DNA of 41,775 bases, taken from sequence record MH363708. The stretch is one strand, 5' to 3'. Below the pieces are notes generated by a model. It was not told where the DNA came from and made no database searches. It saw only the letters and a program-made list of their open reading frames with translations. Each line of letters opens with the position of its first letter. Positions within the stretch are counted from its first letter, which is position 1. Positions 19,624-41,496 of the stretch are shown piece by piece. The translations under genes and the position numbers were made by a program. Source of the stretch: Escherichia phage C130_2.

Positions 19624-19629
19624 CTGGTC

Positions 19630-19650: not shown

Positions 19651-19663
19651 GTAGGGCTGGCCC

Positions 19664-20690: not shown

Positions 20691-20704
20691 TCCGGGGTGA
20701 AAAA

Positions 20705-20733
20705 ATAAGGGGCCATTGCGGCCCCTTTTTTTA
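20705..20733. terminator. Bidirectional intrinsic terminator between the plus-strand block and the tailspike gene
   Basis: A-run, GGGGCCATTGCGGCCCC, T7. Confidence 0.65.
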
Positions 20734-22983
20734 TGTTGGCGTGCGGAACGACACAACTTTTGCCGCTGCAAGCTGGGTGCCAGCCGGTGTGGCGGTCTGG
20801 ATAGCGTGAGCAATATCGATCCTGATCTCACTGGTTGGATCGTTCACGTTGACACGATAAGGCCCGCGCGTGATCCACGTAGAAAGAGGATTGCCCCCTT
20901 CACCGGCACCAGGGATCACAATTCGGCACCCTGGCGAAAGTGGCGTTTTGTAGATCCAGACCATATCACCATTATTGCCACCTAGCGGAAAGTTTGAAGC
21001 AATCGAGAAGGATCCCACGGTGGTTGCCTTGATTTTAAATTCATCAATGGCGGGAATGTACGCGCCGGAGGCGGTCACAACGAAGATCTTTCCGTCATTT
21101 CGAACAACGAGATCCCCCTCCATGAACTCACGCCCCGTGGGGAATGCGTTACCATCCCAAATGCCCGTGGCGTTCATATCAGCCGGTGACGGAATGATAT
21201 AAGTGTGATTCGATGCGGTCATTTTTGCACCGATCCCGCCGTCAATCCCCTGGCGCGGATATGGGCGCGCAAAGACGTTGGATCCTACGCTTTCGATATG
21301 CGAATAGGCGCAGCGTGACCAACCTTGATCGCCGTAGCCGTTCACGTCAGTTGCGTTAACGTTGACCATTCGCAAGATGGTGCGCCCCGTGGCAAGGTAG
21401 CCGTTTGAAGCTGTGCCGCCCGATGAATCATCACCCACGCAATCAAAGATCCGGCAATGAACATTGCTCATGTTCAATTCAGTTGCCACACCGAAAAGCG
21501 AGAATTTCGCCACGTTCACATTTTCAATGTAATACGTGTTAGTTGCCCCTGCCTTCTCGGTGCCGATACCGGCATAAAAGCGCCCTGTTTTACTGTATAC
21601 GTTGCGGATCGCCATATCGTGACAAGGGCCGCGCGCGCCAACGCCAGCATTTGTGCCCCATTCAAGCATAATAACGCGCACATCCTGGGCAAGCGTGCTG
21701 CCGGTAACTACCGGTTCACCGTAAACCCCATCAATGGAGCAACGGCGGGAGCCGTAGAAAAGCACCGTCGCAACCGTCAGGCCGGAACCGTTCGAAACGT
21801 TCTGGTTGGGGTCGCCGTGGATGTTTTCAACAACGGAATCACGAACCATTTCGAAGTGTACGATCTGACGCACTTTGTTTGCGTAAACGTTACGGATCGT
21901 AATGTTTTTGGCAAAGTTTGCGTCAGGTGTATCAATGCCATAAGGGCTTTGACCTGCAACCCCAATCCCAATACCCCAGTTTGACGGCGTGATCGGGGCT
22001 TGGCCTGTTGAGTCGATGTTATCAAGGAAAATGCCGTCAATCAGGCAACCATTATCATAATGGCGCTGTACTACGTTTAACTCGATCCCGTCGCCGCCCA
22101 TATCGTAAAACGACAAATTGCGGTAGACGCCGGACACAACCGTTGATCCCGTGCCTTGCTGGAGGATGCCGTAAAGGCCATTCCGAAACTCGGAATCGCT
22201 GACCTCAATAGTGCTTCCGTCCACTGGCACACCCTGCATCATGATTGATGCAACCTTGCTGGTTGTCGGCTTACCGTCAAACATGCAATCGCGGATCCTT
22301 ACGTCGCCGCCGTAGTGCATGATTCGCAGGTTGTTAATCACTGCACCTTCGATCAGGGTGTCAGTCAGGCGAAAATCTGCGGTGCCCTTCCAGGTTCCCC
22401 CCATGATGGTGATCCCATTCGGGTTGACCGTGCTTTCAAGCGTGCCAGACCAACCATAAGCGTTGACGATCTTCCCGTTCGCTTTGGCGTAGTCAAACAT
22501 TGCCTGAATCGCCTGTGAAACGCTGGTGTACTCTTCGCGGCCCACAAAATCAAACGGCGTCACAAAGCCTTGCAGTTTGGTTTTTAGCGTGCCTTCTGGC
22601 GTGCCCACGTATTCCCAGCCGGTAGACGATCCGATCACCTTCCACATCTGCGCCGCGTCATATTCCAGAAGGTTATCAAAGGAATATTGCAGCACGTCAT
22701 TGCGATCATAAACGTCCATGCTTGATGCGGTCTGCGTCACAAAGCGCCCAACAATCCCGTTATATTCGGGATAGCCGCTCTGGTTGATTTTGATCGGCTG
22801 CGGCACCGGCACCAGCGTTAGATCCTCATTTTCCAGGTACACTTGCACCTGATTTGCCGGATCCTTCGGGTTGGTGTCGGGCTTGCCAATATAGATATCA
22901 CCGCCGCTGATAGGCGCAAACTTGCCAACCTGAATAAACGGGCTGGACGGCATACGCACGGCAGAAAAAACAATATCGCTCAT
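20731..22983 (-). CDS. Tailspike protein (P22-like N-terminal head-binding domain, beta-helix receptor-binding domain)
   Basis: ATG at 22983 with GAGG RBS; N-terminus GDIYIGKPDTNPKDPANQVQVYLENED...PIKINQSG..YNG matches the P22 tailspike head-binding domain as recalled; rest is Gly/Asn/Val-rich, consistent with a parallel beta-helix. Confidence 0.85.
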   Translation of the reverse strand: MSDIVFSAVRMPSSPFIQVGKFAPISGGDIYIGKPDTNPKDPANQVQVYLENEDLTLVPVPQPIKINQSGYPEYNGIVGRFVTQTASSMDVYDRNDVLQYSFDNLLEYDAAQMWKVIGSSTGWEYVGTPEGTLKTKLQGFVTPFDFVGREEYTSVSQAIQAMFDYAKANGKIVNAYGWSGTLESTVNPNGITIMGGTWKGTADFRLTDTLIEGAVINNLRIMHYGGDVRIRDCMFDGKPTTSKVASIMMQGVPVDGSTIEVSDSEFRNGLYGILQQGTGSTVVSGVYRNLSFYDMGGDGIELNVVQRHYDNGCLIDGIFLDNIDSTGQAPITPSNWGIGIGVAGQSPYGIDTPDANFAKNITIRNVYANKVRQIVHFEMVRDSVVENIHGDPNQNVSNGSGLTVATVLFYGSRRCSIDGVYGEPVVTGSTLAQDVRVIMLEWGTNAGVGARGPCHDMAIRNVYSKTGRFYAGIGTEKAGATNTYYIENVNVAKFSLFGVATELNMSNVHCRIFDCVGDDSSGGTASNGYLATGRTILRMVNVNATDVNGYGDQGWSRCAYSHIESVGSNVFARPYPRQGIDGGIGAKMTASNHTYIIPSPADMNATGIWDGNAFPTGREFMEGDLVVRNDGKIFVVTASGAYIPAIDEFKIKATTVGSFSIASNFPLGGNNGDMVWIYKTPLSPGCRIVIPGAGEGGNPLSTWITRGPYRVNVNDPTSEIRIDIAHAIQTATPAGTQLAAAKVVSFRTPT

Positions 22984-23035
22984 TGTTGGTGCCTCGTTGT
23001 TGTATTCAGGCTTTAGTGTATAGACGTTCAGGAAA

Positions 23036-23057
23036 TTAAAAAAGGGGCCGAAGCCCC
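23036..23057 (-). terminator. Intrinsic terminator (UUCG hairpin plus U-run) upstream of tailspike
   Basis: Minus strand GGGGC-TTCG-GCCCC followed by TTTTTTT; the 20-mer is identical to the terminator at 31301-31320. Confidence 0.6.
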
Positions 23058-23062
23058 TTTGG

Positions 23063-26000
23063 TTACTGCTGCCCGTAGATCTGGATCCGCTGCTCACCGT
23101 CAGGGCCGGTGATTAACGGCGGGCGCTCGTCGGTCTGCTCACCGTCGCTGGCTGCTGCCGCTGCCGGAGTACCGGCAAGCCATGCGATGAAACCAGCGCG
23201 GGCGATTTGACGTTGATCAGCCTCGGCAAGCGTGGCGATAAAGTCTTGGGCCGCTTTGCTGTTCGCAAGGCGTCGCTCTGTGGTGTTGATGATCGTCCGG
23301 CTTGGGCCGCTGGATCCATCGTCTGCCACCATGCGAGCAACCGCCCTGATCGCCTGGGTCATATCATCACCGGCGAGGAAACGATCCGCAACCTGCGAAG
23401 CCGCAGCACGGTTGGCAACTGCCCCGCGCGCAGCCTCAACGGCAACGTTACCGAAGCCAGGAGAAACCGCAGCCGCCGCCGATTGCGTCAACATGGCACC
23501 GATCCGCGTGTTAAAGACTTTATCCAAAAAGTCATTGCTGTTGTTGAAGCGGCGCGAAAAGTTGTTGATCTTGCCGGTGGCGGCGAAAGATTCACCCTCT
23601 TTGCGGGCTGCGTTGGCGACTTTCGCCAGGTTGTCAACAACTGCACGCTGATCCGCTGGCAGGTGCTGCATGAGCATTCCCAATTTGCCTGAGTTGCGCG
23701 CCTCGGTGTACCACTTCGCAAAGCCTGGAATGTTCAGGCGTTCGCCGGTGGTGCCGCTCATGCGGAATGCCATTGCAAGCGCGTTGGTCGCAACCTGCGG
23801 GCGCATAGCCGCTGGCGTTGATCGCATGAGAGTTTGAAAACCCTTTGGATCTGCGCCTTTGGTGCCCAGCGCTTTAACAGCCTGATAAATCTTGCTGCTT
23901 GCGGAATTATCAAGCTCTTTGCCCAGCACGGCTTGCTGTTTGGCCTGTAGCGCCACGCGCTGACGGGTCAGATCCTTTGCCGCATCCCACGCATCTTTCA
24001 CGCCAAACTGTGCCGCCACATCCCCTTGATCCTCGGTTAAACGGCTGTACATGGCGTTAAGGCGCGCAACGTTCGCATCCTTGTATGGGCCTTGACGCTT
24101 GTTAATCGCCGCGCCAACGTCTTTGCGCACATCGTCCAGAAGGGCGAAAGTCGGCCCGCCTCGGCTGTCGCTGGTTGGGCTTAGGCGTTCCAATACGCTA
24201 CGCTCAATCGGATCCAGGTTGGCTGCGCCGCCACGGTTACTGGCTTTCTGGTTGAGGTAATCAACCGTCTTTTCTGGATTTACCGGAGTGTGATCCGGGA
24301 TCGTGCGCAATGATTTGTTATAGGCCGCAGTTTCAGCGGTGCCGATATCATCGATCAGTCGGCTTGTCTCTGCCTTGAATGCCTGATCGAAGGTGAGATC
24401 CTCAACCGGCCCGCCTAAGTCTTCCAGCACCTTATCTGCGCGGGCAGTCAACGCCTGATACTGGCGGCTCTGCTTCTCACCCAAAAGGGATCCGGTTTCG
24501 CTGCGCAGGTTGCCGATCACGTCGCGGGTTGACTTGTCGCGCATAAACAGGCCAGGCGTCAGATCGTCAGTCACGCCCAATTCATCTGCGGCGCGCACAA
24601 CCTCTGGATCGATATCGCCACGGCGCGCAAGGTTGATCGCCGCGTTCGGTGCGCTGGAAGTCTCGCCGGTTGCCGCGTCGGTTACTGTGGTGCGCGGTGC
24701 GCTTCCGCGTGCTGCTGCGGTTGCATCCTGTCGCACGGCGTCAATAGCGGCTTGTTGCGTCGCTTCTGCGCCACCAGTACCAGTGCCAGTGCCCGCGCCC
24801 GTTGCGTCCTCTGCTGGGCGGATCAGATCACGGATCACCGGTGCTGCACGCCGTGCGGCTGCGCCAACGGCATTTACTGCCGCCTCGCCCACTGGCCCTG
24901 CTGCGATGCCGATCAGCGCGTCTTGCTGGTCGCCTTCGCTGGCTGCAAGGGCACCTGGCACGGCACGGGTTGCCGGTGCTGCGATCCGTTGCTCAAGGAA
25001 TCCCCCCAAACGGGAAAGGATGCTCGCAACCTCTGGCGAAGCTGTGCCCGCCAATTCTGCCATTTCGCGTGCGATACCCTGAATTTTCGGGGCTGCTGAC
25101 ATAGCCGCGCCACCAGGGATCGGGGTCAGACCGGCGATCAACTTCGCGCCAAACTGAGCATAAGGATCTTCGGGATCATCAAGCCCCATGCCGATCCGGC
25201 CTTCGGGGATCGGGGTATAGGTGCCGTCACCCAGCCCAACTTGCTTGCCCAGCCATGCACCGGCAGACTGTGCCGCGTTCGCTGCATAGATCGGGATGTT
25301 GAGCACGTCTTCTGCTGCGCGCACTAAACCTTTGCCCGCCTGAGTCAGATCGCGCCCAATCGTTGTGGGTGCCTGGTAATCCTGCAACTGCTCTGCGCTG
25401 TAGTAGTCGCCGCTGGTGTCTGGTTGCGGCTGTGCGGCGCTCTGCTGCGTCGTGGCGGCTTGCGGCTGTGGTTGGGTGTCCATAGTCGCTTGCGGCTGTT
25501 CTGGCGCTGCTGGCTGCGTTTCCTGCGGTGCTCGCGGGGTCAGTTCGCCAAACTGGCTGGCAAATTTGTTGGTTGATCCGGTGTCGCCGGCACGGGCGCT
25601 GGTTGCCCGCTGTGGCGCGTCGGAGTCTGTGACCGCACCCAAAGCGCGATCAATCGGGTTAACGCCGCCCGTCCACTGGTCAAAGCGTGAATCGACGTAT
25701 TGACGCCCTTCCGGCCCTGGGGTGTACTCGCCTTTTAACATGGCGTCGGTGTTGCCTGGGCCGTCATGGTACGCTTGCAGGGCCAGCCCCCAATCGCCGT
25801 AGCGGTCATACATCTGGCGCAGGTATTTTGCGCCCGCTTCGGCCTGTAGCGCAGGATTGTTGCGCACCTCTGCTGGGTCATAGCCCATATCGCGCAGCGT
25901 GCCTGGCATAACCTGAGTGCCACCAATGGCACCTTTGCTGGACGTTGCGCCAGTGTCGCCGCCAGACTCTTTGCCAACGAGCGCAGACATAAGCCCTTCT

Positions 26001-26128
26001 GGAATGCCCTGTGATGCGCCCGCCGCTTCCCAATGATTGCCGCCCTGCTGCTGCGGGGCGGTCTGCTGCGGTTGTGCCTGGGCGTTGCCGCCCAGGTTCC
26101 CGAAAGTTGCCGCAAAGTTGAAAGCCAT
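23063..26128 (-). CDS. Ejection / internal virion protein with N-terminal lytic transglycosylase (SLT) domain
   Basis: 1021 aa; N-terminal GKESGG...GGTQVMPGT...AYHDGPGN SLT signature; long Ala/Gly/Thr-rich low-complexity remainder; in the position of P22 gp16. Confidence 0.7.
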   Translation of the reverse strand: MAFNFAATFGNLGGNAQAQPQQTAPQQQGGNHWEAAGASQGIPEGLMSALVGKESGGDTGATSSKGAIGGTQVMPGTLRDMGYDPAEVRNNPALQAEAGAKYLRQMYDRYGDWGLALQAYHDGPGNTDAMLKGEYTPGPEGRQYVDSRFDQWTGGVNPIDRALGAVTDSDAPQRATSARAGDTGSTNKFASQFGELTPRAPQETQPAAPEQPQATMDTQPQPQAATTQQSAAQPQPDTSGDYYSAEQLQDYQAPTTIGRDLTQAGKGLVRAAEDVLNIPIYAANAAQSAGAWLGKQVGLGDGTYTPIPEGRIGMGLDDPEDPYAQFGAKLIAGLTPIPGGAAMSAAPKIQGIAREMAELAGTASPEVASILSRLGGFLEQRIAAPATRAVPGALAASEGDQQDALIGIAAGPVGEAAVNAVGAAARRAAPVIRDLIRPAEDATGAGTGTGTGGAEATQQAAIDAVRQDATAAARGSAPRTTVTDAATGETSSAPNAAINLARRGDIDPEVVRAADELGVTDDLTPGLFMRDKSTRDVIGNLRSETGSLLGEKQSRQYQALTARADKVLEDLGGPVEDLTFDQAFKAETSRLIDDIGTAETAAYNKSLRTIPDHTPVNPEKTVDYLNQKASNRGGAANLDPIERSVLERLSPTSDSRGGPTFALLDDVRKDVGAAINKRQGPYKDANVARLNAMYSRLTEDQGDVAAQFGVKDAWDAAKDLTRQRVALQAKQQAVLGKELDNSASSKIYQAVKALGTKGADPKGFQTLMRSTPAAMRPQVATNALAMAFRMSGTTGERLNIPGFAKWYTEARNSGKLGMLMQHLPADQRAVVDNLAKVANAARKEGESFAATGKINNFSRRFNNSNDFLDKVFNTRIGAMLTQSAAAAVSPGFGNVAVEAARGAVANRAAASQVADRFLAGDDMTQAIRAVARMVADDGSSGPSRTIINTTERRLANSKAAQDFIATLAEADQRQIARAGFIAWLAGTPAAAAASDGEQTDERPPLITGPDGEQRIQIYGQQ

Positions 26129-27451
26129 TTAAAGCCCCTCTGGTAAATAGCCCGCCCATTCTTTAAAGGCGCGTTTGTTCTCTTCTGACGGGTCAGAGAG
26201 TAGCATTTTGCGCGCCTGGGCTGGTACTCCCAATTCATCCAGCTTGGGATCATTCATCACCGCATCATAACGGCTGGTGTTGTTGGTGTATTCCTTCACG
26301 CGCCCGCCGTTGGCTTTTTCGTACCCATCGCGCAAACGCTTAAGGTAGTTGCCAAAGTTTTTGATCGCACGCTGTGCCGCTGCCGGATCCTGAATGTTTT
26401 CAGGGTCGAAGCCCATCAACGATTGCGTGATCGCCATGCTTTCTTTTTCGGACATGCCCGCAGCCGTACCGGATGCAGCCTTGAGTGCCGCCATTGATTG
26501 CGACATTGCCAGGCCTTGAAGTGACTTAAGATCCTGCACCAGTTGCTTTTCATCGTTCGCGCCAGGGATGTTGCGCGCAATGGTGCCGCTTAAACCGCTT
26601 GCGCCTTCCCACGCCGTCTGCAAACGCTGTTTGCTGGCTGGGTTTTTCTGGTTGTCAGGGATCAGGCGGTTGACCTGTCCAATTGCATTATCAAGCGTCG
26701 TAACCTGGCTGTTGTAGCCGTTCAGCCAGTCGCGCTGGGTGTCTACGGTGTCGCCGTATACCTGCGCTTGTTTCTGCTGCGCTGCGGTGCGCTCACGCTC
26801 GCTCTTCGCCAGTTCGGCTTGCTGCTTGGCTTGCTGGCCCTGATAGCGCAAAAAGTTAAACTGGCGATTCATAGCCAGATTAGCCGCCTGGATATCCTGC
26901 GAGCGAGCCGTAAGGCGGTTGCGCTCAACCTCGTTGGCGTAGTCCAGTTGGTCTTTTGTGCCCATGCTGGAAAGCTGCACCGCGTGAACCGCCTGTTCAA
27001 AGCCCTGCTGGTCTGTCTGGTACTGCTCCCACGCATCCTGCGGATCGATGTTCAGCGCCTGGAATGCACCGGCGTTTTGCTGAATAAACTGCTGTACCTG
27101 CTGCGGCCCCTGAGACATTGCCACGCGCACGCCGTTTGCAAGCTGGCCCGCCTGGGTCGCTTGCATATCGTCTTGCAGCCCGATCCGCTCTTTCAGGGTG
27201 CTAATCATCGACGGGTATTTATAAACCAGATCATTCAGCTTTTGCGGATCGCCGCGTGCCGCGCTCCAATCCTGGTTAAACTGCTGCAATTGCTGCTGCT
27301 GCTGATCCTGCTGCTGCATGGCTTTAGCACGGATCTGGTTCTGCTGCTGCAATCCGGTGTTTTGCTGGATCGTCTGAATGTTATTGAGCGTGTTTTGCCC
27401 TGCGCGCTCAATAACCCCCATGTTTTGACCGAAAACGCTCATATCTGACAT
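26129..27451 (-). CDS. Ejection protein (P22 gp20-like by position), Gln-rich
   Basis: 440 aa, translationally coupled, very Q-rich; assignment by synteny only. Confidence 0.45.
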   Translation of the reverse strand: MSDMSVFGQNMGVIERAGQNTLNNIQTIQQNTGLQQQNQIRAKAMQQQDQQQQQLQQFNQDWSAARGDPQKLNDLVYKYPSMISTLKERIGLQDDMQATQAGQLANGVRVAMSQGPQQVQQFIQQNAGAFQALNIDPQDAWEQYQTDQQGFEQAVHAVQLSSMGTKDQLDYANEVERNRLTARSQDIQAANLAMNRQFNFLRYQGQQAKQQAELAKSERERTAAQQKQAQVYGDTVDTQRDWLNGYNSQVTTLDNAIGQVNRLIPDNQKNPASKQRLQTAWEGASGLSGTIARNIPGANDEKQLVQDLKSLQGLAMSQSMAALKAASGTAAGMSEKESMAITQSLMGFDPENIQDPAAAQRAIKNFGNYLKRLRDGYEKANGGRVKEYTNNTSRYDAVMNDPKLDELGVPAQARKMLLSDPSEENKRAFKEWAGYLPEGL

Positions 27452-28113
27452 TAGATCATCGCTCCAAAGAAGCTGCCCGCCGCTTGCGGTGCGCCGTTAA
27501 GATCCTGCGCAACGCCGTTACCGATAGAGTTGTTCATATAGGCCGCTGTCATCCACGGCAACGCCGCTTTCTGGCCCTGAATGTTCCCTTTCGTCTGGTA
27601 GAGGCCGGAAAGGTTGTTAGCCGTACCGGTAGCGAAGCCGCCCAACTGCGCGCCAGCGTTCGCGCCAGTGCCCGCAATATCCATCAGGTTTGAAAAACGA
27701 TCCTGATACTGCTGATACATTTGCGTTAAGTAGTTCTGGCCCAACTGCGACGCGATAGATCCCAGGCGGTTTTGCGTGGTGCTCGCGCCCAGCGTGCCAG
27801 TTGCCTCGGCAGACGCTAACGCCGCGTTGTTCGCCGCGTTGCTCATTAGGCCGTATTCCTGCCCGCCGTAGAAGTCGGACAAAAGACCGGCGCGATCAAA
27901 GCCGTCTGACAACTGGCCTTGAGCCTGGCCCAGCGCGTCTTGACCTGCATCAACGTATGGATCCAGATAGTTTTGCGCAGTTTGCAGCCCTTCACGCTGC
28001 GCGCCCATTGCCTTATCGGTGTACTTGCTTTGCTGTTTTAACTGCTTGTTGGTGCCGATGCCGCCTAACAAGCCGCCAACGGCGTTGGTTACACCGCTAA
28101 CAATCCCGCCCAT
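27451..28113 (-). CDS. Ejection protein (P22 gp7-like by position)
   Basis: 220 aa, Gly/Ala/Gln-rich; AGGAGG RBS; synteny only. Confidence 0.45.
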   Translation of the reverse strand: MGGIVSGVTNAVGGLLGGIGTNKQLKQQSKYTDKAMGAQREGLQTAQNYLDPYVDAGQDALGQAQGQLSDGFDRAGLLSDFYGGQEYGLMSNAANNAALASAEATGTLGASTTQNRLGSIASQLGQNYLTQMYQQYQDRFSNLMDIAGTGANAGAQLGGFATGTANNLSGLYQTKGNIQGQKAALPWMTAAYMNNSIGNGVAQDLNGAPQAAGSFFGAMI

Positions 28114-28495
28114 ATGGCAACCTCCTTAAAAAAAAGTAATTTTCGTATGTGCCATCGTGCATAAGCACCCTATCAACCGGAGATTCTACAAAGCCGCCCA
28201 TTTTTAGTACAACGTTTTTAACGTGTCGGCGGTGCTCGGCAATGGGCACCCTGATCGGGAAGTGGCCCCACTTTTCGATAAACTCGCGGCACATTTGGCG
28301 GGAATGGCGGCGCGCATCCTTACGCATCGCCATGTGACCATCGATCCCGCCTTCCTCGTTATTGTGGACGCAAAACACGCCACAATCGTTGAATAGCCAG
28401 AATTGGGAAGACGGCGGCACATCGTCGGGCCATTCCGTCACGCCCCATTCACGCATCAAGCGGCACCCCTCTTGGGTGGAGATCTGGATCAGCAT
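28097..28495 (-). CDS. Hypothetical virion-module protein (P22 gp14 position)
   Basis: 132 aa, Cys/His-containing; overlapping start with the upstream gene. Confidence 0.45.
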   Translation of the reverse strand: MLIQISTQEGCRLMREWGVTEWPDDVPPSSQFWLFNDCGVFCVHNNEEGGIDGHMAMRKDARRHSRQMCREFIEKWGHFPIRVPIAEHRRHVKNVVLKMGGFVESPVDRVLMHDGTYENYFFLRRLPYGRDC

Positions 28496-29028: not shown

Positions 29029-29038
29029 GTCTGCCCCC

Positions 29039-30954: not shown

Positions 30955-30956
30955 GA

Positions 30957-31283: not shown

Positions 31284-31300
31284 GGTGAGATCCTCATATG

Positions 31301-31320
31301 AAAAAAGGGGCCGAAGCCCC
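31301..31320 (-). terminator. Intrinsic terminator after the coat gene
   Basis: Minus strand GGGGC-TTCG-GCCCC followed by TTTTTT; identical to 23036-23057. Confidence 0.65.
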
Positions 31321-31353
31321 TTATTTATACACTTTTCAATCAGGTTGCGCCAG

Positions 31354-32619: not shown

Positions 32620-32657
32620 CTATTTATTGCTCCTGCCGATGATGTTCGGGAATAAGT

Positions 32658-33656: not shown

Positions 33657-33726
33657 TAGCTTTTACACTCCTATACGCGATGAATTTTTGTACCCCATCG
33701 GCGGGCAAGGTGAGTGTAAGGCAGTA

Positions 33727-33742
33727 TTTACACCGTTGTAAA
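33727..33742. promoter_or_regulatory. 16-bp palindromic element TTTACACCGTTGTAAA in the scaffold-gene leader
   Basis: Arms TTTACA / TGTAAA; the same element, one central mismatch, occurs at 1267-1282 in the leader of gene 101-1222. Confidence 0.4.
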
Positions 33743-33754
33743 GGTGAATGCACG

Positions 33755-33782
33755 AAAAAATCCACCCAGCAACGGGGCTGGG
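33755..33782 (-). terminator. Intrinsic terminator after gene 33801-34247
   Basis: Minus strand CCCAGC-CCCGTT-GCTGGG followed by TGGATTTTTT. Confidence 0.45.
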
Positions 33783-33800
33783 CAGATTCGGTGGCGGGGT

Positions 33801-34247
33801 TTAGCGGTGGAATACGCCAATAAACTTGCCCAATCGGACGATCTCAGGGCTGATCATCGGGGCGTTGTGTACGGCGTCGGCTGCGGCGGTATTCAGGCGC
33901 GAAAAGTAGCGGATCATGTGCTTCGATACGATCTCAGGGTCGGTGCCCATTTCTTCCGGCACGCAAAACCGCGTTTCGATCATCCGGCGCGGATCGTTAA
34001 CGTCTGCCGCCTGATCTTGCTCAATGGTCACGGTCAACGCCTGATAGGTGATATCCTTCGGCGGCGCTGGGCGCGGGTAAATTACCCCGCTGGCTTCGGC
34101 TTCCTTCCACTTTTTGAGCGCCTCAACGTAAGCGCTGTACTCCTGATCCGACGCTGGCAGGGTGAAGACTGGCCCGCGATCATGATCAAACTGATAGGTG
34201 CGCCCGTTGAGCGCCCCCATTAACATTGTGTAGCGATAAACGGTCAT
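33801..34247 (-). CDS. Hypothetical protein (148 aa), second gene of the insert between portal and scaffold
   Basis: ATG at 34247 with AGGGG RBS. Confidence 0.5.
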   Translation of the reverse strand: MTVYRYTMLMGALNGRTYQFDHDRGPVFTLPASDQEYSAYVEALKKWKEAEASGVIYPRPAPPKDITYQALTVTIEQDQAADVNDPRRMIETRFCVPEEMGTDPEIVSKHMIRYFSRLNTAAADAVHNAPMISPEIVRLGKFIGVFHR

Positions 34248-34256
34248 GGCATCCCC

Positions 34257-34730
34257 TTAGAATGGAATATCAGGATCAAAATCGGCCTTTGGTGCTGCCG
34301 GTACGATCTCCGCGTCCTGCACGTCTTCTGCGCGGCGCGGGTTAACTTCGCGGGCATTGTCTGCCGCTGCCACAAAATCACCCTCCAGCGGGCCTTTGTA
34401 GGTCAGCGCACGAATGCTGGCGATATCGGCAAGGAATTTGGTTTCCTGCACGGTAAAATCAGCGCGCAACTTCTGCAAGCCAGCCTCCATGATCGGCAGA
34501 CTGATCGCCGCTTGCTCTTCGGCGCTCGGCATATCGTAATCAATCGCGCACTCAAACGTTTTTAACAGCACATAGGCTGCGCTTTCGCCACCCTTGCGGA
34601 TATGCTCTTCAACGCTCCAGATCGCGGAGTAGTCGAAGGATTCAACCGATACGGATCCGCGTTTTGGCCCGCCGTTTTTGCCCTCGGCAACGCAAAGGCA
34701 CACGAACAAAGTTTTATTGATAACTGGCAT
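34257..34730 (-). CDS. Protein ending in an SSB-like acidic tip (…ADFDPDIPF), function unknown
   Basis: ATG at 34730 with AGGG RBS; last 8 residues DFDPDIPF match 7 of 8 the SSB tip DFDDDIPF encoded at 19096-19623; the first ~35 residues weakly resemble the first beta-hairpin of SSB. Confidence 0.5.
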   Translation of the reverse strand: MPVINKTLFVCLCVAEGKNGGPKRGSVSVESFDYSAIWSVEEHIRKGGESAAYVLLKTFECAIDYDMPSAEEQAAISLPIMEAGLQKLRADFTVQETKFLADIASIRALTYKGPLEGDFVAAADNAREVNPRRAEDVQDAEIVPAAPKADFDPDIPF

Positions 34731-34774
34731 ATTCTTAACCCTCATGAATTAGTGAAGTGTACGGGCAAAGAATA

Positions 34775-34813
34775 GCCCGCCGAAGCGGGCTTGTCTTTAG
34801 CAAAAAGTGCTAT
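34775..34813 (-). promoter_or_regulatory. Inverted-repeat motif copy (site E) plus UUCG hairpin at the portal / insert junction
   Basis: Minus strand ATAGCACTTTTTGCTAAAG overlapping the portal stop codon, followed by GCCCGC-TTCG-GCGGGC; no TATATAG element here. Confidence 0.4.
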
Positions 34814-37050
34814 TGCTGCGGTTGCTGGGTTGCGGTCTGCTGCGCGGCAGATAACAGGCGATCCGCTTCGCGGTTGTCTTGCTCCTGCTGCTGCTGTCCG
34901 AAGCTCTGCAAAAGCTGGATAACCTGCACCAACTGGTTGTGCTCCACGCCCGCTGCGTCTGCCAGCGTCTTGATCGTCTGCGCCTCGGTCAAGCGTCCAT
35001 CCTGGGCGGCTTTGTTGGCGTCCACGTTCAGTTTCAGCGCTTTCAGTTGCAGATCCAAATGCTTGTTTTGCTCGCCCATCAAGGCTGCATCGCCTTTCTT
35101 GTTCTCTGCGATTGCCAGTTGGGTTGCGGCGTCCGGCTGCTGGTTCTGCTTCGACTGCTCCAGCATGGCTTTTTCTTCGTCCGTTTCCGGCTTGATCACA
35201 CCCTGCAAGATCATCTGATTGCGGGCGTACTCGCGGAAGTCCTGCATTCCCTCGCCGTCCATGTTCATGATGATCAGCGCCGCAACAATCGCAGCATTTG
35301 GGCTGGCGTCGCCCATCGTGGCAAGCAAGTTGGTCAGGTTGCGCACGGTGGCTTGACGGCGCGTTGTGCTCGCCTCGCCCACATCGGCTTCAACCTCATA
35401 GCGCCCCTGCGAAAGATCGTTGAGGCCGATCTCTTCTTTCGTGGTGCGGTCAATGATCTTGCCGTCCATCAATACGAACTCATCCGATCCGTCTTCCTGC
35501 ACGATTCGAATATAATCGGTTGATCCGTACACCTCGCGCGCCATTTCACGCCATACGCGCCCCGCGTGGCGCAGGGATTTTGCGAGGTTGTCCATATACA
35601 GCGCGCCTTGCCCGTCCATGCGGGAGAAAATCGCCTCAACGGTTTCCGTTGCCAGGTTGCTTGGCATGTTCTCAAGCTGGCTGGCCCCTACGATCTGTTG
35701 AATCGTGCCGCCCGTGTATTGCAGGATCGCTGCAACGGCTGGGCTTAGTGGGGTTGTCGGGGTGAAGTTGATCACCTGCCCTGCGGCAATAACATTGCCG
35801 TCAGCGTCGCGCAACGAGTCAACCGGCAGGAATGCTGGTCGATCAGTGTTACGATCCCCCCACGCCTGAGCCAGCGGGCCTGGGATCATGTTGATATCCA
35901 CAATCGGGATATTATCGCCGCCACACTGCGCCGCGTTGTCAGCCAGCATGGACACGATCAGGTTTTCCAGGCGCTGCGCATCAACGGCTAACGTAGCGTG
36001 ACCGGCGATCCGCTCCTTGTTGTCCACGAACGAACGGCGGGCATACACGGGGATCAGCGGAATATAACAGCCTGGCAAGCGCTTTGGCTTCTCGATCCAC
36101 TCGCCACCCGATAGGATCCCGCAGTAAACGCGCGGCTTTTTGACGGTGCGGCGGCTCTGCTCTTCAAATCCGCTTTCGCTCAACTCGTCTTTGATATCCT
36201 CGATCTGCTCTTCGTCGTAAACAACGGTTTGCTGCGTGATCGGGTTCAGGTAGCTAACCACGTCCACATCTTCGATCCGCTTCTCGTAGTAGCGCGCCAG
36301 GTAAACAACGTTCGGCGTTACCCAATCAAACTGCTTGCCGGTGTCGATGGTTTCCAGCGCGGCTGGCGGCAGGGCGTCTGGATATTGATCTTCGAAGCTG
36401 TCACGATCCAGGCTGTAAAGCTCGGTGGCCCACATAGCATCACTGCGATCATACTGCTTGCTGTTCTGGTCAAAGAAGACGCACGACGCCGGATCATAGA
36501 CCGGATAGAAACGAATGTTTCGTTGCACGCTTTCGGGGTTGAATGCGTCTTCCTCTTCGGTGTCCATGCGGAAGCAACCAAAGCCGCCCGTTACCGCATC
36601 ATCAAAAGCGTTGTCGATAGCCTCGCCGCCGCTGGACTCGTTGAAGTCGGCGCGAAACTTGCCATTCATCTTGTCGGCTAACTCGTCGGACGCGGCCCCA
36701 TCCTTCGGACGGAATACCACGTTGATCCGGTTCTGGCGGTAGTCGGTAATGATGCGATCAACTTCGCGCGCCAGCTTGTTCAGCTCAAAGCGCGGGTATT
36801 TTTCAAAGCGTTTATCGTCCATCGCCCAACCGGCAGACGTGCTGCCTTCCCACTGCGCACCAACGACACGAACAAAGCGCAGCACTTCGATCATCTTCTT
36901 GCGCGTAGTCTCTTCATTCGCGTACTGTTGCCCAATGCGCTTGCGGGCACGTTCAAAGCAAGCCTCGTCGCGCTTGGTCTGCTCTGCCGCCTCGCGGTTG
37001 CGCTGGCGCGTTTCGCGTGCCTTCTGCGCTGGGGTTTTGCTATTCGCCAT
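34810..37050 (-). CDS. Portal protein
   Basis: 746 aa, GGGAG RBS, directly downstream of the large terminase; size and position as P22 gp1. Confidence 0.8.
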   Translation of the reverse strand: MANSKTPAQKARETRQRNREAAEQTKRDEACFERARKRIGQQYANEETTRKKMIEVLRFVRVVGAQWEGSTSAGWAMDDKRFEKYPRFELNKLAREVDRIITDYRQNRINVVFRPKDGAASDELADKMNGKFRADFNESSGGEAIDNAFDDAVTGGFGCFRMDTEEEDAFNPESVQRNIRFYPVYDPASCVFFDQNSKQYDRSDAMWATELYSLDRDSFEDQYPDALPPAALETIDTGKQFDWVTPNVVYLARYYEKRIEDVDVVSYLNPITQQTVVYDEEQIEDIKDELSESGFEEQSRRTVKKPRVYCGILSGGEWIEKPKRLPGCYIPLIPVYARRSFVDNKERIAGHATLAVDAQRLENLIVSMLADNAAQCGGDNIPIVDINMIPGPLAQAWGDRNTDRPAFLPVDSLRDADGNVIAAGQVINFTPTTPLSPAVAAILQYTGGTIQQIVGASQLENMPSNLATETVEAIFSRMDGQGALYMDNLAKSLRHAGRVWREMAREVYGSTDYIRIVQEDGSDEFVLMDGKIIDRTTKEEIGLNDLSQGRYEVEADVGEASTTRRQATVRNLTNLLATMGDASPNAAIVAALIIMNMDGEGMQDFREYARNQMILQGVIKPETDEEKAMLEQSKQNQQPDAATQLAIAENKKGDAALMGEQNKHLDLQLKALKLNVDANKAAQDGRLTEAQTIKTLADAAGVEHNQLVQVIQLLQSFGQQQQEQDNREADRLLSAAQQTATQQPQQ

Positions 37051-37098
37051 TTGTCGGCACTCCCTCTGGTTTCATCTGGATATCACCACGGGGCAAAA

Positions 37099-37143
37099 AT
37101 AGCACAAATTGCTAAAACATTTCACGGATTAATGATTATAGTA
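37099..37143 (+). promoter_or_regulatory. Promoter-like bipartite element (site G) driving a plus-strand ORF inside the late region
   Basis: ATAGCACAAATTGCTAAAACA, 18-bp spacer, then TGATTATAGTA (contains the TATAGT hexamer). Confidence 0.45.
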
Positions 37144-37176
37144 AACGCACATTCACTGATTAATGAGGCAAGAAAA

Positions 37177-37380
37177 ATGGGAATCGAAATTACTGTGGGC
37201 CTGTTGTTGATGCGCGTTGCTTGCGCGCTGGTGGTTGGTCTGGCTGCGGGCCGCATTGGTCGCCGTGGCTGGCTGTGGGCACTCGTCACACTGGCTGGCG
37301 GCGTGATCATCGGCCTGGGCGGTCTGTTCATTGCCGAAGTGGTGAAGGCGCGGGCCAAAAAATCCCGCGTGCCGGCGTGA
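37177..37380 (+). CDS. Small two-helix membrane protein (67 aa) transcribed antisense to the late operon
   Basis: ATG at 37177 with GAGG RBS; two hydrophobic helices (ITVGLLLMRVACALVVGLAAG, WLWALVTLAGGVIIGLGGLFIA) and a basic C-terminus; lies between the terminase and portal genes. Confidence 0.5.
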   Translation: MGIEITVGLLLMRVACALVVGLAAGRIGRRGWLWALVTLAGGVIIGLGGLFIAEVVKARAKKSRVPA

Positions 37381-37501
37381 GTGGGATCAACCCAATAACG
37401 CTGGCTATCCGCACCGCTCATGAGCGCAACGCGCTTGATCGATGGGTGGCATACGTTAACGCGGCGTTGGCGTTCAGGGCTGAAATGATGCGATTGTTTG
37501 A

Positions 37502-37518
37502 GGGGCCATAATGGCCCC
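37502..37518. other. GC-rich hairpin GGGGCCATAATGGCCCC between the terminase and portal genes
   Basis: Perfect 6-bp stem; could terminate the antisense small-ORF transcript or act as a processing or attenuation site in the late transcript. Confidence 0.4.
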
Positions 37519-37524
37519 CTTTGC

Positions 37525-39147
37525 TTATCGGTTGGACGGCACCCGCAGGTTGCTATAGTCCGGCCTGATCTGCGGCTTCGGCGGCTGCATCGTCATGATC
37601 AGACTATCTGCCATGCCTGGTGAGCGGATCTTCAACTTCTCGCGCATTTGCTTTTTCGGCATCCTGCGGAATTTCCCGTTGTTGTCGTAGATACGGGGGA
37701 TCCTGCATAGCTCGGCGCGTAGCTGGGCCATAAATTCACCGATCCCCTCGCTGTCCAGACTGATCAACTCGTCGGGGTTGCTGTACTCCCCGTGCTCAAT
37801 CGCCCTGTATGTCTTTTCAAAGCGACGGCGTAACAGGTAGATATCCTGCGATCCCCTGTCACCAAACTGATCTTTGTTTTTGCGGGTGTTGCGCCCCTCG
37901 GCCTCCTTGTTTAGCCAGTTGTCCAACTCCACTGGCGCTTCGGGATTCTTCACGCCTTCACCGGCCTTGTATTCGTCCACCAGCACGGCAGTATCTTTGT
38001 AAGCCGTGGTGATATCGCGGCGCAGGGCTGCGCCCAGGCCGGAACCATCCCAAAGGAACATATTCACGCCGTGCGCCTTCGCCCAGGTGATCGCCTTGTC
38101 GGCTGAGTCGTTGGCGTCGCCGTCATACCAGGATTGAGCGAAGCAAACAACGCTGCCGTGCCGCTCAATGTACGCCTTGTTATCTTTCCCCACGTCTGCT
38201 GGGTCAAGTGCTGCGATGCGTGCGCCGGTAGGCTTCCAGCCCATTTTCTTATGCGCATCAATGGCGGCATCGAACCATTCAGCCGGAATGATCGCATCTT
38301 CTACGCTGTCGTTAAATGCGCCGTGCCAGATATGATCGAACAAGGCGCGGGAAAGCGTCTTCCGATCAAACTCCATTTCGGCGCGCAGGGCTTCGGGGAA
38401 CCACGGGTTTTTGTCGTAGTTCACTTTGATAACGAGGTGTAGATCATCCTCGTAGATCCCTTTGGCGTCCAGTTCATGCAGGAACGGCACAATAAAGCGC
38501 TGCGAGAATGGATCCTCGCTGCTGCCTGGGTTGGCGGTAAAGATCATGCGCCCGCCTTCCTCGCGCATGGTCGGGGTCAGCTTGCGCAGACTGTCGGCGC
38601 TGAATGTCTGCGACTCTTCACCCCAAAAGCGGGTAAAGCCAAACGCCGATTTTACGCCGTCAGGGTCACGGGCCATGCCTTTAAAGCGGTGCCCGCCGCC
38701 GTTGGCGTGCCTGATCTCGTCGCGCAGGAACTCCAGCCCCTCGATCCCCTGCTTCTCGGCGCACGCCTTTAACAGCGGGTAAACGGAATCTTTGATCGAT
38801 GATTGGAACTCACGGAGGTTGAGCACCTTTGCTGCGTAGTCGTCAACGTCAGCATTGACGATGCGGCCCACGCTTTCTGACTTGCCGGAACCACGGCCCC
38901 CGATGATAACGATAAATCGTTTTGGGCGGGTCAATACCGGCTCCATGACTTCGGGGATCGTCACGGTGTGCGGCTCGGTTGTTTCCACCCAGCGACGGCC
39001 CACGCGCTTAATATTCTTGACGTGGATCGGCATGAAGTCAGACGGGCGATAGATACCGAAAACCGTTTGGGTGTGCGTTTCGATATGGCGCGCCCTCGCC
39101 TCTGCCTGGTTCGTCCGGCGCATAATGTCTTTGAGGTTACGCCCCAT
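37525..39147 (-). CDS. Terminase large subunit
   Basis: 540 aa; Walker A IIGGRGSGKS near the N-terminus, nuclease-like C-terminal half; GAGGA RBS; immediately upstream of the portal gene. Confidence 0.85.
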   Translation of the reverse strand: MGRNLKDIMRRTNQAEARARHIETHTQTVFGIYRPSDFMPIHVKNIKRVGRRWVETTEPHTVTIPEVMEPVLTRPKRFIVIIGGRGSGKSESVGRIVNADVDDYAAKVLNLREFQSSIKDSVYPLLKACAEKQGIEGLEFLRDEIRHANGGGHRFKGMARDPDGVKSAFGFTRFWGEESQTFSADSLRKLTPTMREEGGRMIFTANPGSSEDPFSQRFIVPFLHELDAKGIYEDDLHLVIKVNYDKNPWFPEALRAEMEFDRKTLSRALFDHIWHGAFNDSVEDAIIPAEWFDAAIDAHKKMGWKPTGARIAALDPADVGKDNKAYIERHGSVVCFAQSWYDGDANDSADKAITWAKAHGVNMFLWDGSGLGAALRRDITTAYKDTAVLVDEYKAGEGVKNPEAPVELDNWLNKEAEGRNTRKNKDQFGDRGSQDIYLLRRRFEKTYRAIEHGEYSNPDELISLDSEGIGEFMAQLRAELCRIPRIYDNNGKFRRMPKKQMREKLKIRSPGMADSLIMTMQPPKPQIRPDYSNLRVPSNR

Positions 39148-39568
39148 TCCTGATCATCCTCTCAATGCCCCATAGTGTGCGCACCACGATCATTTCAATG
39201 GCGTATGCCTGGTATTCGTCATTCTCCAGATCCCATTCCTGCCCGCGTGATCGGAAAATGCTGTTAAGCGTGTGGATCGCCTCATGCGCCACCCGCCCTG
39301 CCACTATGGCTGGATCGGCGTCCATCTTCACACTGAGGACGGCAAGATCCCAATTGTCCGGGGTTTGGTATGGCTGGAAGCTGGCACCGTAAGGGCGTCC
39401 GTCTTCCAGGTCTGGCAGGATATCGCGGATCGCGTCGAAGTCTTCCAGAAGATGCACGACAAGCTGCACCCGCCAGGGGTGCAACTCATAGACGTAAAAG
39501 CCAGCCGCTTCTAACTGCTGGATCGTGTTTTTATTCCGCTTCTGTCGTGGTGTCAGTGTCCGTGCCAT
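39137..39568 (-). CDS. Hypothetical protein with HEAIH (HExxH) motif; possible small terminase by position
   Basis: ATG at 39568 with GGAGAG RBS; overlaps the large-terminase start by 11 nt; no recognisable small-terminase motif. Confidence 0.4.
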   Translation of the reverse strand: MARTLTPRQKRNKNTIQQLEAAGFYVYELHPWRVQLVVHLLEDFDAIRDILPDLEDGRPYGASFQPYQTPDNWDLAVLSVKMDADPAIVAGRVAHEAIHTLNSIFRSRGQEWDLENDEYQAYAIEMIVVRTLWGIERMIRNGA

Positions 39569-40124
39569 GCTCGATCTCTCCGCGTTTCGCTGCTTCTGCC
39601 TCTGCCTGGCGGCGTTCGATCTCGTCCAGACGTTCAAGGATCCCGCTGATTTCCTGCACCTCGGCACCCTTCTTGAAGATATCGATCAGGGCGTGCGCGG
39701 CATCAATCGGGATCTCACCCTTCGCCACTGCCACCATGATCGCATCAATGCGCTGGTTTGGTGTCCAGGTCGGATCAAAGTCAAATTCGAAGTGCGGCAT
39801 GGTTGGGCGCTGATACGGGATCAGGCGGGCCAAAATGTCACGGTACATGGAAGGATCTTTCCAGGCCAACTGCAAGCCGCGCTGAATGAAAAGCTCTTCT
39901 GTGAGCGTCACCTCTTCCATCTGGCCTTCGGCGTTCAGTTGCTTAACCTTGACCGTTTGCAGGGCTTGCAATAGCAGGGTGCGGAATTGTGGCCCGCGCT
40001 TCTGGTTGCGTGGGCTTTTCGGTGGCGGGTTATCCTCGCCAAACTTCTTGCCCTCGCCACGGCCTTTGCCTGGGCCTTGCTGTGGGCCATCGTCGATCAG
40101 GGGGTCTTTGTCGTGGTCGATCAT
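39531..40124 (-). CDS. Hypothetical protein (197 aa); alternative small-terminase candidate
   Basis: Basic Gly/Pro-rich N-terminus, acidic C-terminus; weak RBS; overlaps the downstream gene by 38 nt. Confidence 0.4.
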   Translation of the reverse strand: MIDHDKDPLIDDGPQQGPGKGRGEGKKFGEDNPPPKSPRNQKRGPQFRTLLLQALQTVKVKQLNAEGQMEEVTLTEELFIQRGLQLAWKDPSMYRDILARLIPYQRPTMPHFEFDFDPTWTPNQRIDAIMVAVAKGEIPIDAAHALIDIFKKGAEVQEISGILERLDEIERRQAEAEAAKRGEIEHGTDTDTTTEAE

Positions 40125-40166
40125 TTTCGCTTCATTCTCTCATGATTACATGGTTGAAGCGATTAT

Positions 40167-40180
40167 GGGCCAAAAGGCCC
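40167..40180 (-). other. Hairpin GGGCCAAAAGGCCC
   Basis: Perfect 5-bp stem between genes 40188-40547 and 39531-40124. Confidence 0.3.
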
Positions 40181-40187
40181 AATAAGA

Positions 40188-40547
40188 TCAATCAGAGTGG
40201 GAACTATGACCGGCGCGCGGTTGCGGGGTCAGGTCGATCCAGGCGATTTCCTCCGGCGTTATGTCCACCAGCGGCGCGCCTCGGTGGTTGAATGCGTGCG
40301 GGTCGGCCTTCTTCGACTCATACCCACGAAAGCGGCGGTTTTTGTTGTACTCCCTCGCATACAGCCTGGAACAATCAACGCACTTTCCGCTGCTGGTGAA
40401 GAATCCGGCGCTGTGCCCGTCAATCTGGCAACCCTGCTGGGGGTGGTAGATCTTCGCCTTCAATAGCCGCGCCTCTGCCCTGCTCTTCGGGTGCCGCGTA
40501 GTCAATCCCGCTGGCTTCCTGCTCTGCCAATCGTTCGTATTCCCCAT
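40188..40547 (-). CDS. Hypothetical Cys-containing protein (119 aa); conflicts with 40420-40620
   Basis: ATG at 40547 with AAGGGG upstream; Cys/His cluster (CQIDGH...CVDC). Overlaps the alternative ORF by 128 nt. Confidence 0.3.
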   Translation of the reverse strand: MGNTNDWQSRKPAGLTTRHPKSRAEARLLKAKIYHPQQGCQIDGHSAGFFTSSGKCVDCSRLYAREYNKNRRFRGYESKKADPHAFNHRGAPLVDITPEEIAWIDLTPQPRAGHSSHSD

Positions 40548-40620
40548 CAATGGTGATCCCCTTCTCAATGCGTAGGGGGCCGGACACGGCCCCGCATACT
40601 TGATAAGCGATGCCGCCCAT
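40420..40620 (-). CDS. Hypothetical acidic protein (66 aa); conflicts with 40188-40547
   Basis: ATG at 40620 forms a TGATG overlap with the upstream gene stop (translational coupling). Confidence 0.3.
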   Translation of the reverse strand: MGGIAYQVCGAVSGPLRIEKGITIDGEYERLAEQEASGIDYAAPEEQGRGAAIEGEDLPPPAGLPD

Positions 40621-40865
40621 CAGCCTAACCAATCCACGGGGCGCACGTCACACAACAACCGTGAGTTTTCAACGTTCACGCCGTCTGCCGATCCGCGCAC
40701 CTGGATAAAGATCCGATGGTACGCCTTATCGCCGTTAAGGCTGGGCTTTATGTCGTAGCCGGTTACGCGGTGCGCTACCCAGCGATCAACGCTGGAAAGG
40801 TGGATCAGCACGTCACAACCCACGGGCGGCAACTGCTCACCATCCCAAATCTGTTTCATGCCCAT
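40620..40865 (-). CDS. Hypothetical protein (81 aa)
   Basis: ATG at 40865 with AGGAG RBS. Confidence 0.5.
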   Translation of the reverse strand: MGMKQIWDGEQLPPVGCDVLIHLSSVDRWVAHRVTGYDIKPSLNGDKAYHRIFIQVRGSADGVNVENSRLLCDVRPVDWLG

Positions 40866-40870
40866 TGTGA

Positions 40871-41137
40871 TCAGTCTCCTAACAAGCGGCGGCGCATTTC
40901 GGCAAGGGCTTGCACCGCCTGGGCAACGTCAGCCCGTGACGCAAGCCCGCTGATAATCTGGAAGGCTTCGGGGTGATTGATCGCCCACTCAAGCTGGCGC
41001 GCCTCCAGGCTGGAAAGCTCGGAGATCCGCCCGTCTGCCGTCTTCACGATCAGCAATGCCCGCGAATCATCCCAAATGGCGCGGGTGCGCCCCTCGTCGT
41101 TCTCAAGCTCGGTGGCTAGTGTCGTGCCCTTGCTCAT
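40871..41137 (-). CDS. Hypothetical protein (88 aa)
   Basis: ATG at 41137 with GGGG RBS, 2 nt after the upstream stop. Confidence 0.5.
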   Translation of the reverse strand: MSKGTTLATELENDEGRTRAIWDDSRALLIVKTADGRISELSSLEARQLEWAINHPEAFQIISGLASRADVAQAVQALAEMRRRLLGD

Positions 41138-41139
41138 GA

Positions 41140-41496
41140 TTAACGCCCCTGTGCTGCGTTGCCAACGCTTCTGACGGCTTCCGCATAGCTGCGTTTGGCG
41201 ATTGCCTCGGCCTCTTTGCGGGAGTACCCACGGCGCATAAGTGACGCCGTACCTTTGGCGATCAGACGCGCCTTTTTCTCTTTGCGTGTCTCGCCCTCTT
41301 TGCGGTCTGGCACGTCAGGCGGTGTGCCCATCATGGCACGCTGCATGGCTGCGCGTGGCTTCACAATACCGGCGTTGATCGCCTCCTGCCGGATGTTATC
41401 GGCGCGCATCTTCTGGATCGGCTCTGGTATCACTTCGGCTTTTTGTTTCGAACTGATCACCATGTTAACCAATGCGCTGATAATCCCTCGTTTCAT
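41140..41496 (-). CDS. Hypothetical basic protein (118 aa), first gene after the terminator hairpins
   Basis: ATG at 41496 preceded by TGAGG 9 nt upstream; the track ORF extends further but this is the first ATG with an RBS. The window begins at the reverse complement of its first two codons (ATGAAA). Confidence 0.5.
   Translation of the reverse strand: MKRGIISALVNMVISSKQKAEVIPEPIQKMRADNIRQEAINAGIVKPRAAMQRAMMGTPPDVPDRKEGETRKEKKARLIAKGTASLMRRGYSRKEAEAIAKRSYAEAVRSVGNAAQGR

Follow-up and report, generated by a model that had tools for sequence, protein, structure and literature searches.

We consider it highly probable that the 41,775-bp stretch of DNA analysed here (sequence record MH363708; hereafter the window) constitutes the entire genome of Escherichia phage C130_2, a non-integrating, virulent phage with a P22-type short-tailed particle, and that its mosaic of early and virion genes is an ancestral feature shared by a whole clade. 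The helicase, coat protein, TerL, AAA_25 ATPase, tailspike and the product of a 229-amino acid (aa) open reading frame (ORF), all six of the proteins tested and distributed around the genome, were identical to C130_2 proteins (AXC343xx / YP_0098125xx). Taken as a proxy for the nucleotide criterion of at least 95% identity, these matches place the window in the species Hungariovirus C1302. C130_2 is the sole species of the genus Hungariovirus of the International Committee on Taxonomy of Viruses (ICTV), for which NCBI taxonomy gives 'Giessenvirus' as a synonym; its RefSeq accession is NC_048067 (PMC8402661) and the window corresponds to the IMG/VR isolate entry IMGVR_UViG_2974611538_000001. The genome publication is Svab et al. 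2019 (Arch Virol 164:321), as cited in PMC7552041 and PMC8427288. The novelty implied by an earlier note, which had been made from the letters of this DNA and had named membership of a described genus as what would refute it, was therefore lost. The mosaic is real but already known, with a published genome, an ICTV genus and a clade of at least a dozen sequenced lytic isolates, and it is of little importance as a discovery.

Pfam was run on the 55 main ORFs and seven small ones, and PHROGs on 20 ORFs, mostly those that had no Pfam match. Positions 20731-39568 on the minus strand were found to hold a complete P22-type virion module, in the gene order of P22 and Sf101. In the direction of transcription, a putative TerS (39137-39568, assigned by position only) is followed by TerL (Terminase_3 in Pfam, 37525-39147), the P22_portal protein (34810-37050; PF16510, E 8e-155), two small ORFs (33801-34745), the scaffold (32658-33656; phrog_648) and P22_CoatProtein (31354-32619; PF11651, E 9e-74). 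The tail genes are those of gp4 (P22_Tail-4, 30487-30960; PF11650, E 1.5e-21), gp10 (Phage_stabilise, 29039-30487; PF11134, E 3e-129) and the gp26-like needle (28495-29028; phrog_1219, E 1e-22), which is 52% identical to the C-terminus of P22 gp26. A 132-aa protein in the position of gp14 (28097-28495) leads on to the ejection proteins, namely the gp7-like P22_gp7 (27451-28113; PF25688), the gp20-like Inj_translocase (26129-27451; PF16928) and a gp16-like protein of 1,021 aa with an N-terminal SLT domain (Pfam, 23063-26128). The module closes with a 750-aa tailspike (20731-22983) carrying a Head_binding domain (PF09008, E 1.6e-30), whose true start is Met39 of the long ORF, at 22983. Coat, portal, gp4, gp10 and needle were thus all present, and gp7, gp20, gp16 and the head-binding tailspike stood in P22 order; the earlier note had proposed a P22-like gene order. 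No sheath, tube or baseplate family was matched in Pfam or PHROGs, and by gene content the tail set is entirely P22-type. The note had run the P22-like region from 20731 to 41496; the part up to 39568 is indeed virion module, but 39568-41496 (minus strand) holds small genes upstream of the packaging genes, with no Pfam match, PHROGs of unknown function and homologues in the phage Skarpretter, and 41491-41775 duplicates the first 285 bp.

The description of the particle as P22-type required refinement for the head. The coat protein was 69% identical to that of Sf101 and 27% to that of P22 (Sf101 against P22, 29%), and the portal 58% and 30% respectively (Sf101 against P22, 35%). TerL was 39% identical to its Sf101 counterpart and had no real match in P22, as is likewise the case for Sf101 TerL against P22. 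Coat, portal and TerL are thus near to Sf101 and distant from P22, and the head belongs to the CUS-3/Sf101 type and not to that of P22. In contrast, gp4, gp10, gp26, gp7 and gp20 were 25-47% identical to Sf101 and 30-47% to P22, while Sf101 and P22 are 41-93% identical to one another, so that the tail and ejection genes behave in these comparisons as an outgroup to both. The gp16-like protein matched its Sf101 homologue (gp13, 911 aa) at 30% over 990 aa, and P22 gp16 (609 aa) weakly, at 27% over 211 aa.

The other half of the mosaic is an early region whose components, as listed in the earlier note (SF2 helicase, primase, RecA-fold ATPase, ERF, SSB, Dam and dUTPase), were all recovered by Pfam and PHROGs. 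What that note could only call non-lambdoid can now be named, as a primase/helicase/ExoVIII-ERF/Dam core resembling that of phage T1. On the minus strand lie Dam (12601-13332, 34% identical to T1), dUTPase (13329-13781) and primase (13940-14782, 31%). Divergent from these, on the plus strand, are the SF2 helicase (14846-16903, 47%), VRR-NUC (16900-17370, 36%), an ExoVIII-like PD-(D/E)XK exonuclease (17360-18367, 37%), the ERF annealase (18370-19092, 36%) and SSB (19096-19623). When all window proteins were compared with T1 by tblastn, only lysozyme, Dam, primase, helicase, VRR-NUC, ExoVIII and ERF gave matches. The nearest helicases outside the clade, at 45-49% identity, include those of Drexlerviridae (T1-like phages).

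The RecA-fold ATPase belongs to the AAA_25 (RepA/DnaB-like) family and lies apart from this core, at 2125-3666 on the minus strand. The 513-aa protein matched Pfam AAA_25 with E 1.4e-11 and the helicase-primase PHROGs phrog_906/3228, and it was 58% identical to Skarpretter gp45. Its C-terminus gave a weak match to a SarX-like winged helix-turn-helix (E 0.27) and possibly forms a winged helix. We regard it as a putative replication initiator or helicase. Homology to the T1 ST9 helicase was considered and rejected, as BLASTP found no similarity, and sequence searches of the PDB with this protein and with the gp16-like protein gave no significant match.

The lifestyle was examined through searches for lysogeny functions and for integrated copies. 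Integrase, CI-type repressor, O/P, N and Q had no Pfam match in any ORF, PHROGs gave neither an integrase nor a repressor among the 20 ORFs run, and for these functions six-frame tblastn with 18 lysogeny and early proteins of P22 and Sf101 reached E 0.02 at best, the sole stronger match being that of P22 Erf to the ERF protein of the window (E 0.002). The claim that integrase, cI/cro and the O/P layout are lacking was borne out by both searches. Since the largest non-coding gap among the 55 genes is 383 bp, there is no room for a missed recombinase. Two candidates were set aside individually: the 373-aa ORF at 101-1222, considered as an integrase, has a hydrophobic N-terminus, coiled-coil-like sequence and no family match, and the 229-aa ORF at 4050-4739, considered as a CI-like repressor, has no helix-turn-helix (HTH) or peptidase match. 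The search of host genomes for a prophage, which the earlier note had proposed, covered 5,426 complete E. coli genomes and the PLSDB plasmids, and nucleotide matches were found at the Rz spanin gene only. A TerL identical to that of the window occurred in 45 blocks of an assembly collection, in which the longest contig was 20-50 kb in 25 and above 50 kb in none, and the longest contig among the top 120 helicase homologues was 52.6 kb. Two relatives, Kc166B and Kc237, are podoviruses by electron microscopy; their latent period is 40 min and their burst 100, and they lyse the culture completely in 1-2 h (PMC8402661). The lack of a lysogeny module and of prophage or plasmid copies beyond the spanin gene, the small contigs and the lytic relatives together support a virulent lifestyle, and the suspicion that this is a virulent phage fits all the evidence.

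Several observations weigh against the reading of the window as a virulent, short-tailed C130_2 genome. The title of the C130_2 paper (Svab et al. 2019) says myovirus; this label lacks support from the gene content, which is that of a complete P22-type short tail. Our identification with MH363708 / NC_048067 draws on exact protein matches and not on DNA alignment, and inference also underlies the promoters, the replication origin, the mode of packaging and the substrate of the tailspike. A pattern scan built on the helicase alignment retrieved no relative among 100,044 species genomes, but it used only two peptide patterns, was of limited sensitivity and could miss distant prophage relatives. 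A conserved XRE-type HTH protein of 71 aa (20475-20690, plus strand) is present. Finally, the Enterobacter hormaechei assembly GCA_051847635.1 includes a stand-alone contig of 41,553 bp (JBPXFR010000023.1) with a TerL identical to that of the window and with helicase, coat and tailspike in the same 90%-identity clusters. This contig is most simply read as contamination; lytic carry-over or a carrier state could also account for it.

These last two observations are also the ground for the alternative that the phage is temperate or in a carrier state, as a free episome for which the XRE HTH protein would be the repressor and the AAA_25 ATPase a plasmid-type replication protein. The XRE gene is conserved across the clade, the ATPase is of a RepA/DnaB-like family and the E. 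hormaechei contig stands alone in an isolate assembly, all of which such a state would explain. However, free phage DNA is a common contaminant of isolate assemblies, where it appears as a separate contig. Searches of the window also turned up neither partition genes nor a telomere resolvase, an antirepressor or a repressor of CI type carrying a peptidase domain, the PLSDB matches are confined to the spanin gene, and clade members were isolated as plaque-forming lytic phages, Kc166B and Kc237 giving full lysis. We therefore hold this alternative to be very unlikely.

Returning to the virulent mosaic phage, the next question is the age of the mosaic. Protein searches with the coat and with the helicase retrieved one and the same set of phages, namely Skarpretter, Sortsne, sortkaff, IME279, Kc237, IME_EC2, sortsyn, sortregn, Lumpael, KMB41, ST231 and Kc166B, at 62-75% identity for the coat and 54-66% for the helicase. 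For the Sortsnevirus and Murrayvirus phages (Sortsne, IME279, Kc237, IME_EC2, Lumpael and sortsyn) together with Kc166B, the ranges were 62-67% and 54-59%. The early and virion modules diverge comparably across the clade, and since they diverge in step, the fusion is older than the split into at least four genera. On sequence comparison the mosaic is an ancestral, conserved architecture of Hungariovirus, Skarprettervirus and Sortsnevirus and not a recent event in this genome; Murrayvirus, Kc166B and Kc237 are assigned to the clade by their coat and helicase types.

This bears directly on the proposal that the window is a mosaic not described before, in which a virulent or otherwise unusual phage took up a P22-type particle in recent times. 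Outside the clade, the two modules are indeed closest to different phages, the early core being T1-like and the head CUS-3/Sf101-like. But the exact protein matches are to a published member of an ICTV genus, the same architecture is collinear in Skarpretter and Sortsne, some ten other isolates have these coat and helicase types again, and the comparable divergence of the modules speaks for an old fusion, so that this proposal is very improbable and the acquisition put forward in the earlier note cannot have been recent in this genome. That the mosaic arose in assembly, as a chimera of two phages grown in one culture, a thought encouraged by the untrimmed ends that the 285-bp terminal duplication betrays, is scarcely credible, since dozens of independent contigs of 41.3-42.1 kb from separate sequencing runs carry early and late proteins identical or at least 90% identical to those of the window, the one contig examined in detail (from SRR22430055) has its genes in the order of the window, from the early blocks through to those for tailspike and ejection proteins, and independent isolates in other genera are collinear.

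The genome is about 55% G+C, and no tRNA genes were found in the 41,775-bp window. Positions 41491-41775 are an exact copy of 1-285 (285 of 285 identical). The duplicated ends indicate that the assembly is complete and either circular or permuted, the unit genome being 41,490 bp, and they are probably an untrimmed overlap of such an assembly, the alternative being a real direct terminal repeat. The 55 genes called fall into four blocks, which make up two divergent pairs. On the minus strand, a long unit runs leftward from the AAA_25 gene across the circular junction to the tailspike stop codon at 20731, in the order AAA_25, small genes, terminase, portal, scaffold, coat, tail hub, ejection proteins and tailspike; the 373-aa protein, with its N-terminal hydrophobic segment and coiled-coil-like sequence, is encoded in this unit (minus strand). 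The second block is rightward (4050-8078, plus strand) and has the genes for holin, lysozyme and spanin at its end, after which comes a bidirectional terminator at 8067-8087. The leftward early block (8091-14782, minus strand) and the rightward early block (14846-20690, plus strand) were annotated from Pfam and PHROGs, with T1 homology for Dam and primase in the former and for the core genes in the latter.

The largest intergenic region, of 383 bp (3667-4049), lies between divergent gene blocks and is a probable early promoter or origin region; a promoter-like consensus match is found at 3727-3699 on the minus strand. Within it, positions 3798-4041, upstream of the 229-aa ORF, are about 82% identical in nucleotide sequence to Cronobacter phages CS01 and SG01 and to phage sp. 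CRES7 and CRES9. The matching regions of these phages are annotated 'hypothetical protein', and in the window the stretch includes a 55-aa ORF (3837-4004) with no family match. The 63-bp region between primase and helicase carries candidate back-to-back sigma-70-like promoters (14776-14852), recognised as consensus matches only: TTGCCA-17-TATATT on the plus strand and TTGCCA-17-TATTCT on the minus strand.

The remaining genes can be assigned as follows. The rightward block begins with the 229-aa ORF (plus strand), which matched PHROGs of unknown function only, and includes an Nmad5-domain protein (5975-6673, plus strand; Pfam E 3e-29) ahead of the holin (6762-7061, Pfam), the lysozyme (6931-7545, Pfam) and an Rz-like spanin (7521-8078) identified by a tblastn match to Skarpretter Rz, these three likewise on the plus strand. 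The leftward early block holds, all on the minus strand, an Ig-like protein (8091-8888) alongside small ORFs, a DUF3268 zinc-finger protein (9646-10089), a second DNA methyltransferase (10735-11529) and a RusA-like protein (11969-12553). Beyond SSB, the rightward early block continues on the plus strand with an endonuclease (19664-20098) and a DUF4406 (nucleoside deoxyribosyltransferase-like) protein (20038-20478) and ends with the XRE gene. The window was found to encode no DNA polymerase or phage RNA polymerase, nor any sigma factor or N/Q antiterminator. The Nmad5 and DUF4406 genes are also present in the close relative STP9, described below, and missing from Skarpretter and Sortsne; they may have an accessory role in modifying nucleotides or DNA, Nmad5 being a nucleotide-modification-associated family. 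The slot between the XRE gene and the tailspike is only 40 bp in the window (20690-20731). At this place the SRR22430055 relative (41,408 bp) carries a 93-aa Tad2-like gene of the anti-Thoeris family (PF11195, at 15854-16135), and Sortsne an extra small gene, so that the junction of the early and virion modules looks like an insertion hot spot for accessory genes.

Based on these assignments, an infection cycle can be proposed. The tailspike would join the tail via the P22-type head-binding domain that it carries, and would bind and probably cleave a colanic-acid-like surface polysaccharide: it is identical to C130_2 YP_009812583, for which RefSeq gives the name 'colanic acid degradation', and the tailspike of a relative in the same 90% cluster contains a WcaM domain. 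By analogy with P22 and Sf6, the needle and the gp7-, gp20- and gp16-like ejection proteins may then open the envelope, the gp16-like protein bringing its own SLT domain for murein cleavage. Host RNA polymerase with sigma-70 would read the two pairs of divergent blocks, if the consensus matches are indeed promoters. Replication is likely to rely on the T1-like core, with its divergent primase and SF2 helicase-VRR-NUC unit and ExoVIII-ERF-SSB recombination, and on the AAA_25 ATPase as likely initiator or helicase. Since the window encodes no DNA polymerase, synthesis would be carried out by that of the host, and recombination-dependent replication would be expected to give concatemers. Dam and the second methyltransferase presumably modify the DNA, and dUTPase may clean the nucleotide pool. 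The Terminase_3-type terminase would fill CUS-3-type procapsids, probably by the headful, a mode that the 285-bp end duplication would fit if it is the overlap of a circular or permuted assembly. Holin, lysozyme and spanin would bring about lysis.

Against 50,697 phage records, megablast found one close relative, OR754315, at 93-94% identity, and partial matches to Skarpretter at about 74%. OR754315 is entered as 'Stutzerimonas phage vB_SstS_STP9' (here STP9), a partial genome flagged UNVERIFIED_ORG. It is collinear with the window, most of its proteins are 93-100% identical, and its intergenomic similarity of about 88% places it in the same genus by the 70% rule and below the 95% species line. 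It is without the window ORFs 4050-4739, 5669-5956 and 40620-40865. Its diverged loci are AAA_25 (62%), the endonuclease (52%), the ORF at 33801-34247 (51%) and the tailspike (72%). These four loci (2125-3666, 19664-20098, 33801-34247 and 20731-22983) thus stand at 51-72% among neighbours at 93-100%, which points to localised gene replacement within the genus. Because the window has 55% G+C and enterobacterial-type lysis genes, the comparison suggests that STP9 is really an enterobacterial Hungariovirus phage and that its Stutzerimonas label is doubtful. With the duplicated 285-bp end and the unsupported 'myovirus' label, this makes three record-level problems exposed by the analysis.

The taxonomy lines of Hungariovirus, Skarprettervirus, Sortsnevirus, Murrayvirus and Kc166B give no family name. 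It is possible, and we put it forward tentatively as a proposal that may well prove wrong, that they make up one family-level lineage, a stable and ancient chimera of a T1-type core and a P22-like virion with a CUS-3-type head. If true, its members would be virulent phages with a particle of the kind that is otherwise characteristic of temperate ones, and the T1-like core and CUS-3-type head would support its treatment as a family-level chimeric lineage. In a less likely variant of this proposal, members could also persist as free episomes in enterobacterial isolates, as might be suggested by the E. hormaechei contig. Taken together, the T1-like core, the CUS-3/Sf101-type head and the outgroup position of the tail genes make the clade a clear case of virulent and temperate enterobacterial phages exchanging modules over a long time. 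The few papers that we found mentioning these genera do not analyse the origin of the modules; that the early core is explicitly of T1-like origin and that the head is of CUS-3 type are apparently undescribed, and are the only new angle that we found.

Comparison with known systems places the window as follows. Skarpretter is collinear with the window: 46 of its 63 proteins match the window by tblastn, in the same order and at 30-75% identity, and the four-block layout is the same; it is without the Nmad5, DUF4406 and 229-aa genes and has a band-7 gene that the window does not. Intergenomic similarity calculated in the manner of VIRIDIC was 42-44%, below the 70% that would make the window a Skarprettervirus and in agreement with the 38% nucleotide similarity between Skarpretter and C130_2 reported by Olsen et al. 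2020 (PMC7552041). Sortsne (Sortsnevirus), compared gene by gene, has the same gene order and the same combination of a P22-type virion and a T1-like core, with about 17% intergenomic similarity; for the Sortsnevirus and Murrayvirus phages and Kc166B, the AAA protein and numerous small genes gave no detectable match. The temperate P22-like phages with the CUS-3/Sf101 head type (genus Lederbergvirus) encode an integrase and a repressor of LexA type, together with N/Q antiterminators, O-like replication genes and nin genes, all of which are missing from the window, and of the integrase/attP, CI/C2 repressor with Cro, N/Q and O/P functions by which membership was assessed none was found. Sf101 shares with the window a gp10 at 40% identity and the tailspike head-binding domain; the intergenomic similarity was 4.6% to Sf101 and 0.0% to P22, against the minimum of 70% for that genus. 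T1, with an intergenomic similarity of 0.5%, has the divergent primase and helicase-VRR-NUC unit and the ExoVIII-ERF pair conserved in the window, at 31-47% identity and with local synteny across the core, and T1 and the Drexlerviridae have the virulent lifestyle that we propose here. But T1 is a siphovirus, and none of its virion proteins (major head protein, tape measure, tail tube) has a homologue in the window, so that the T1-type core is a likeness of one module only and not a sign of membership of the Drexlerviridae.

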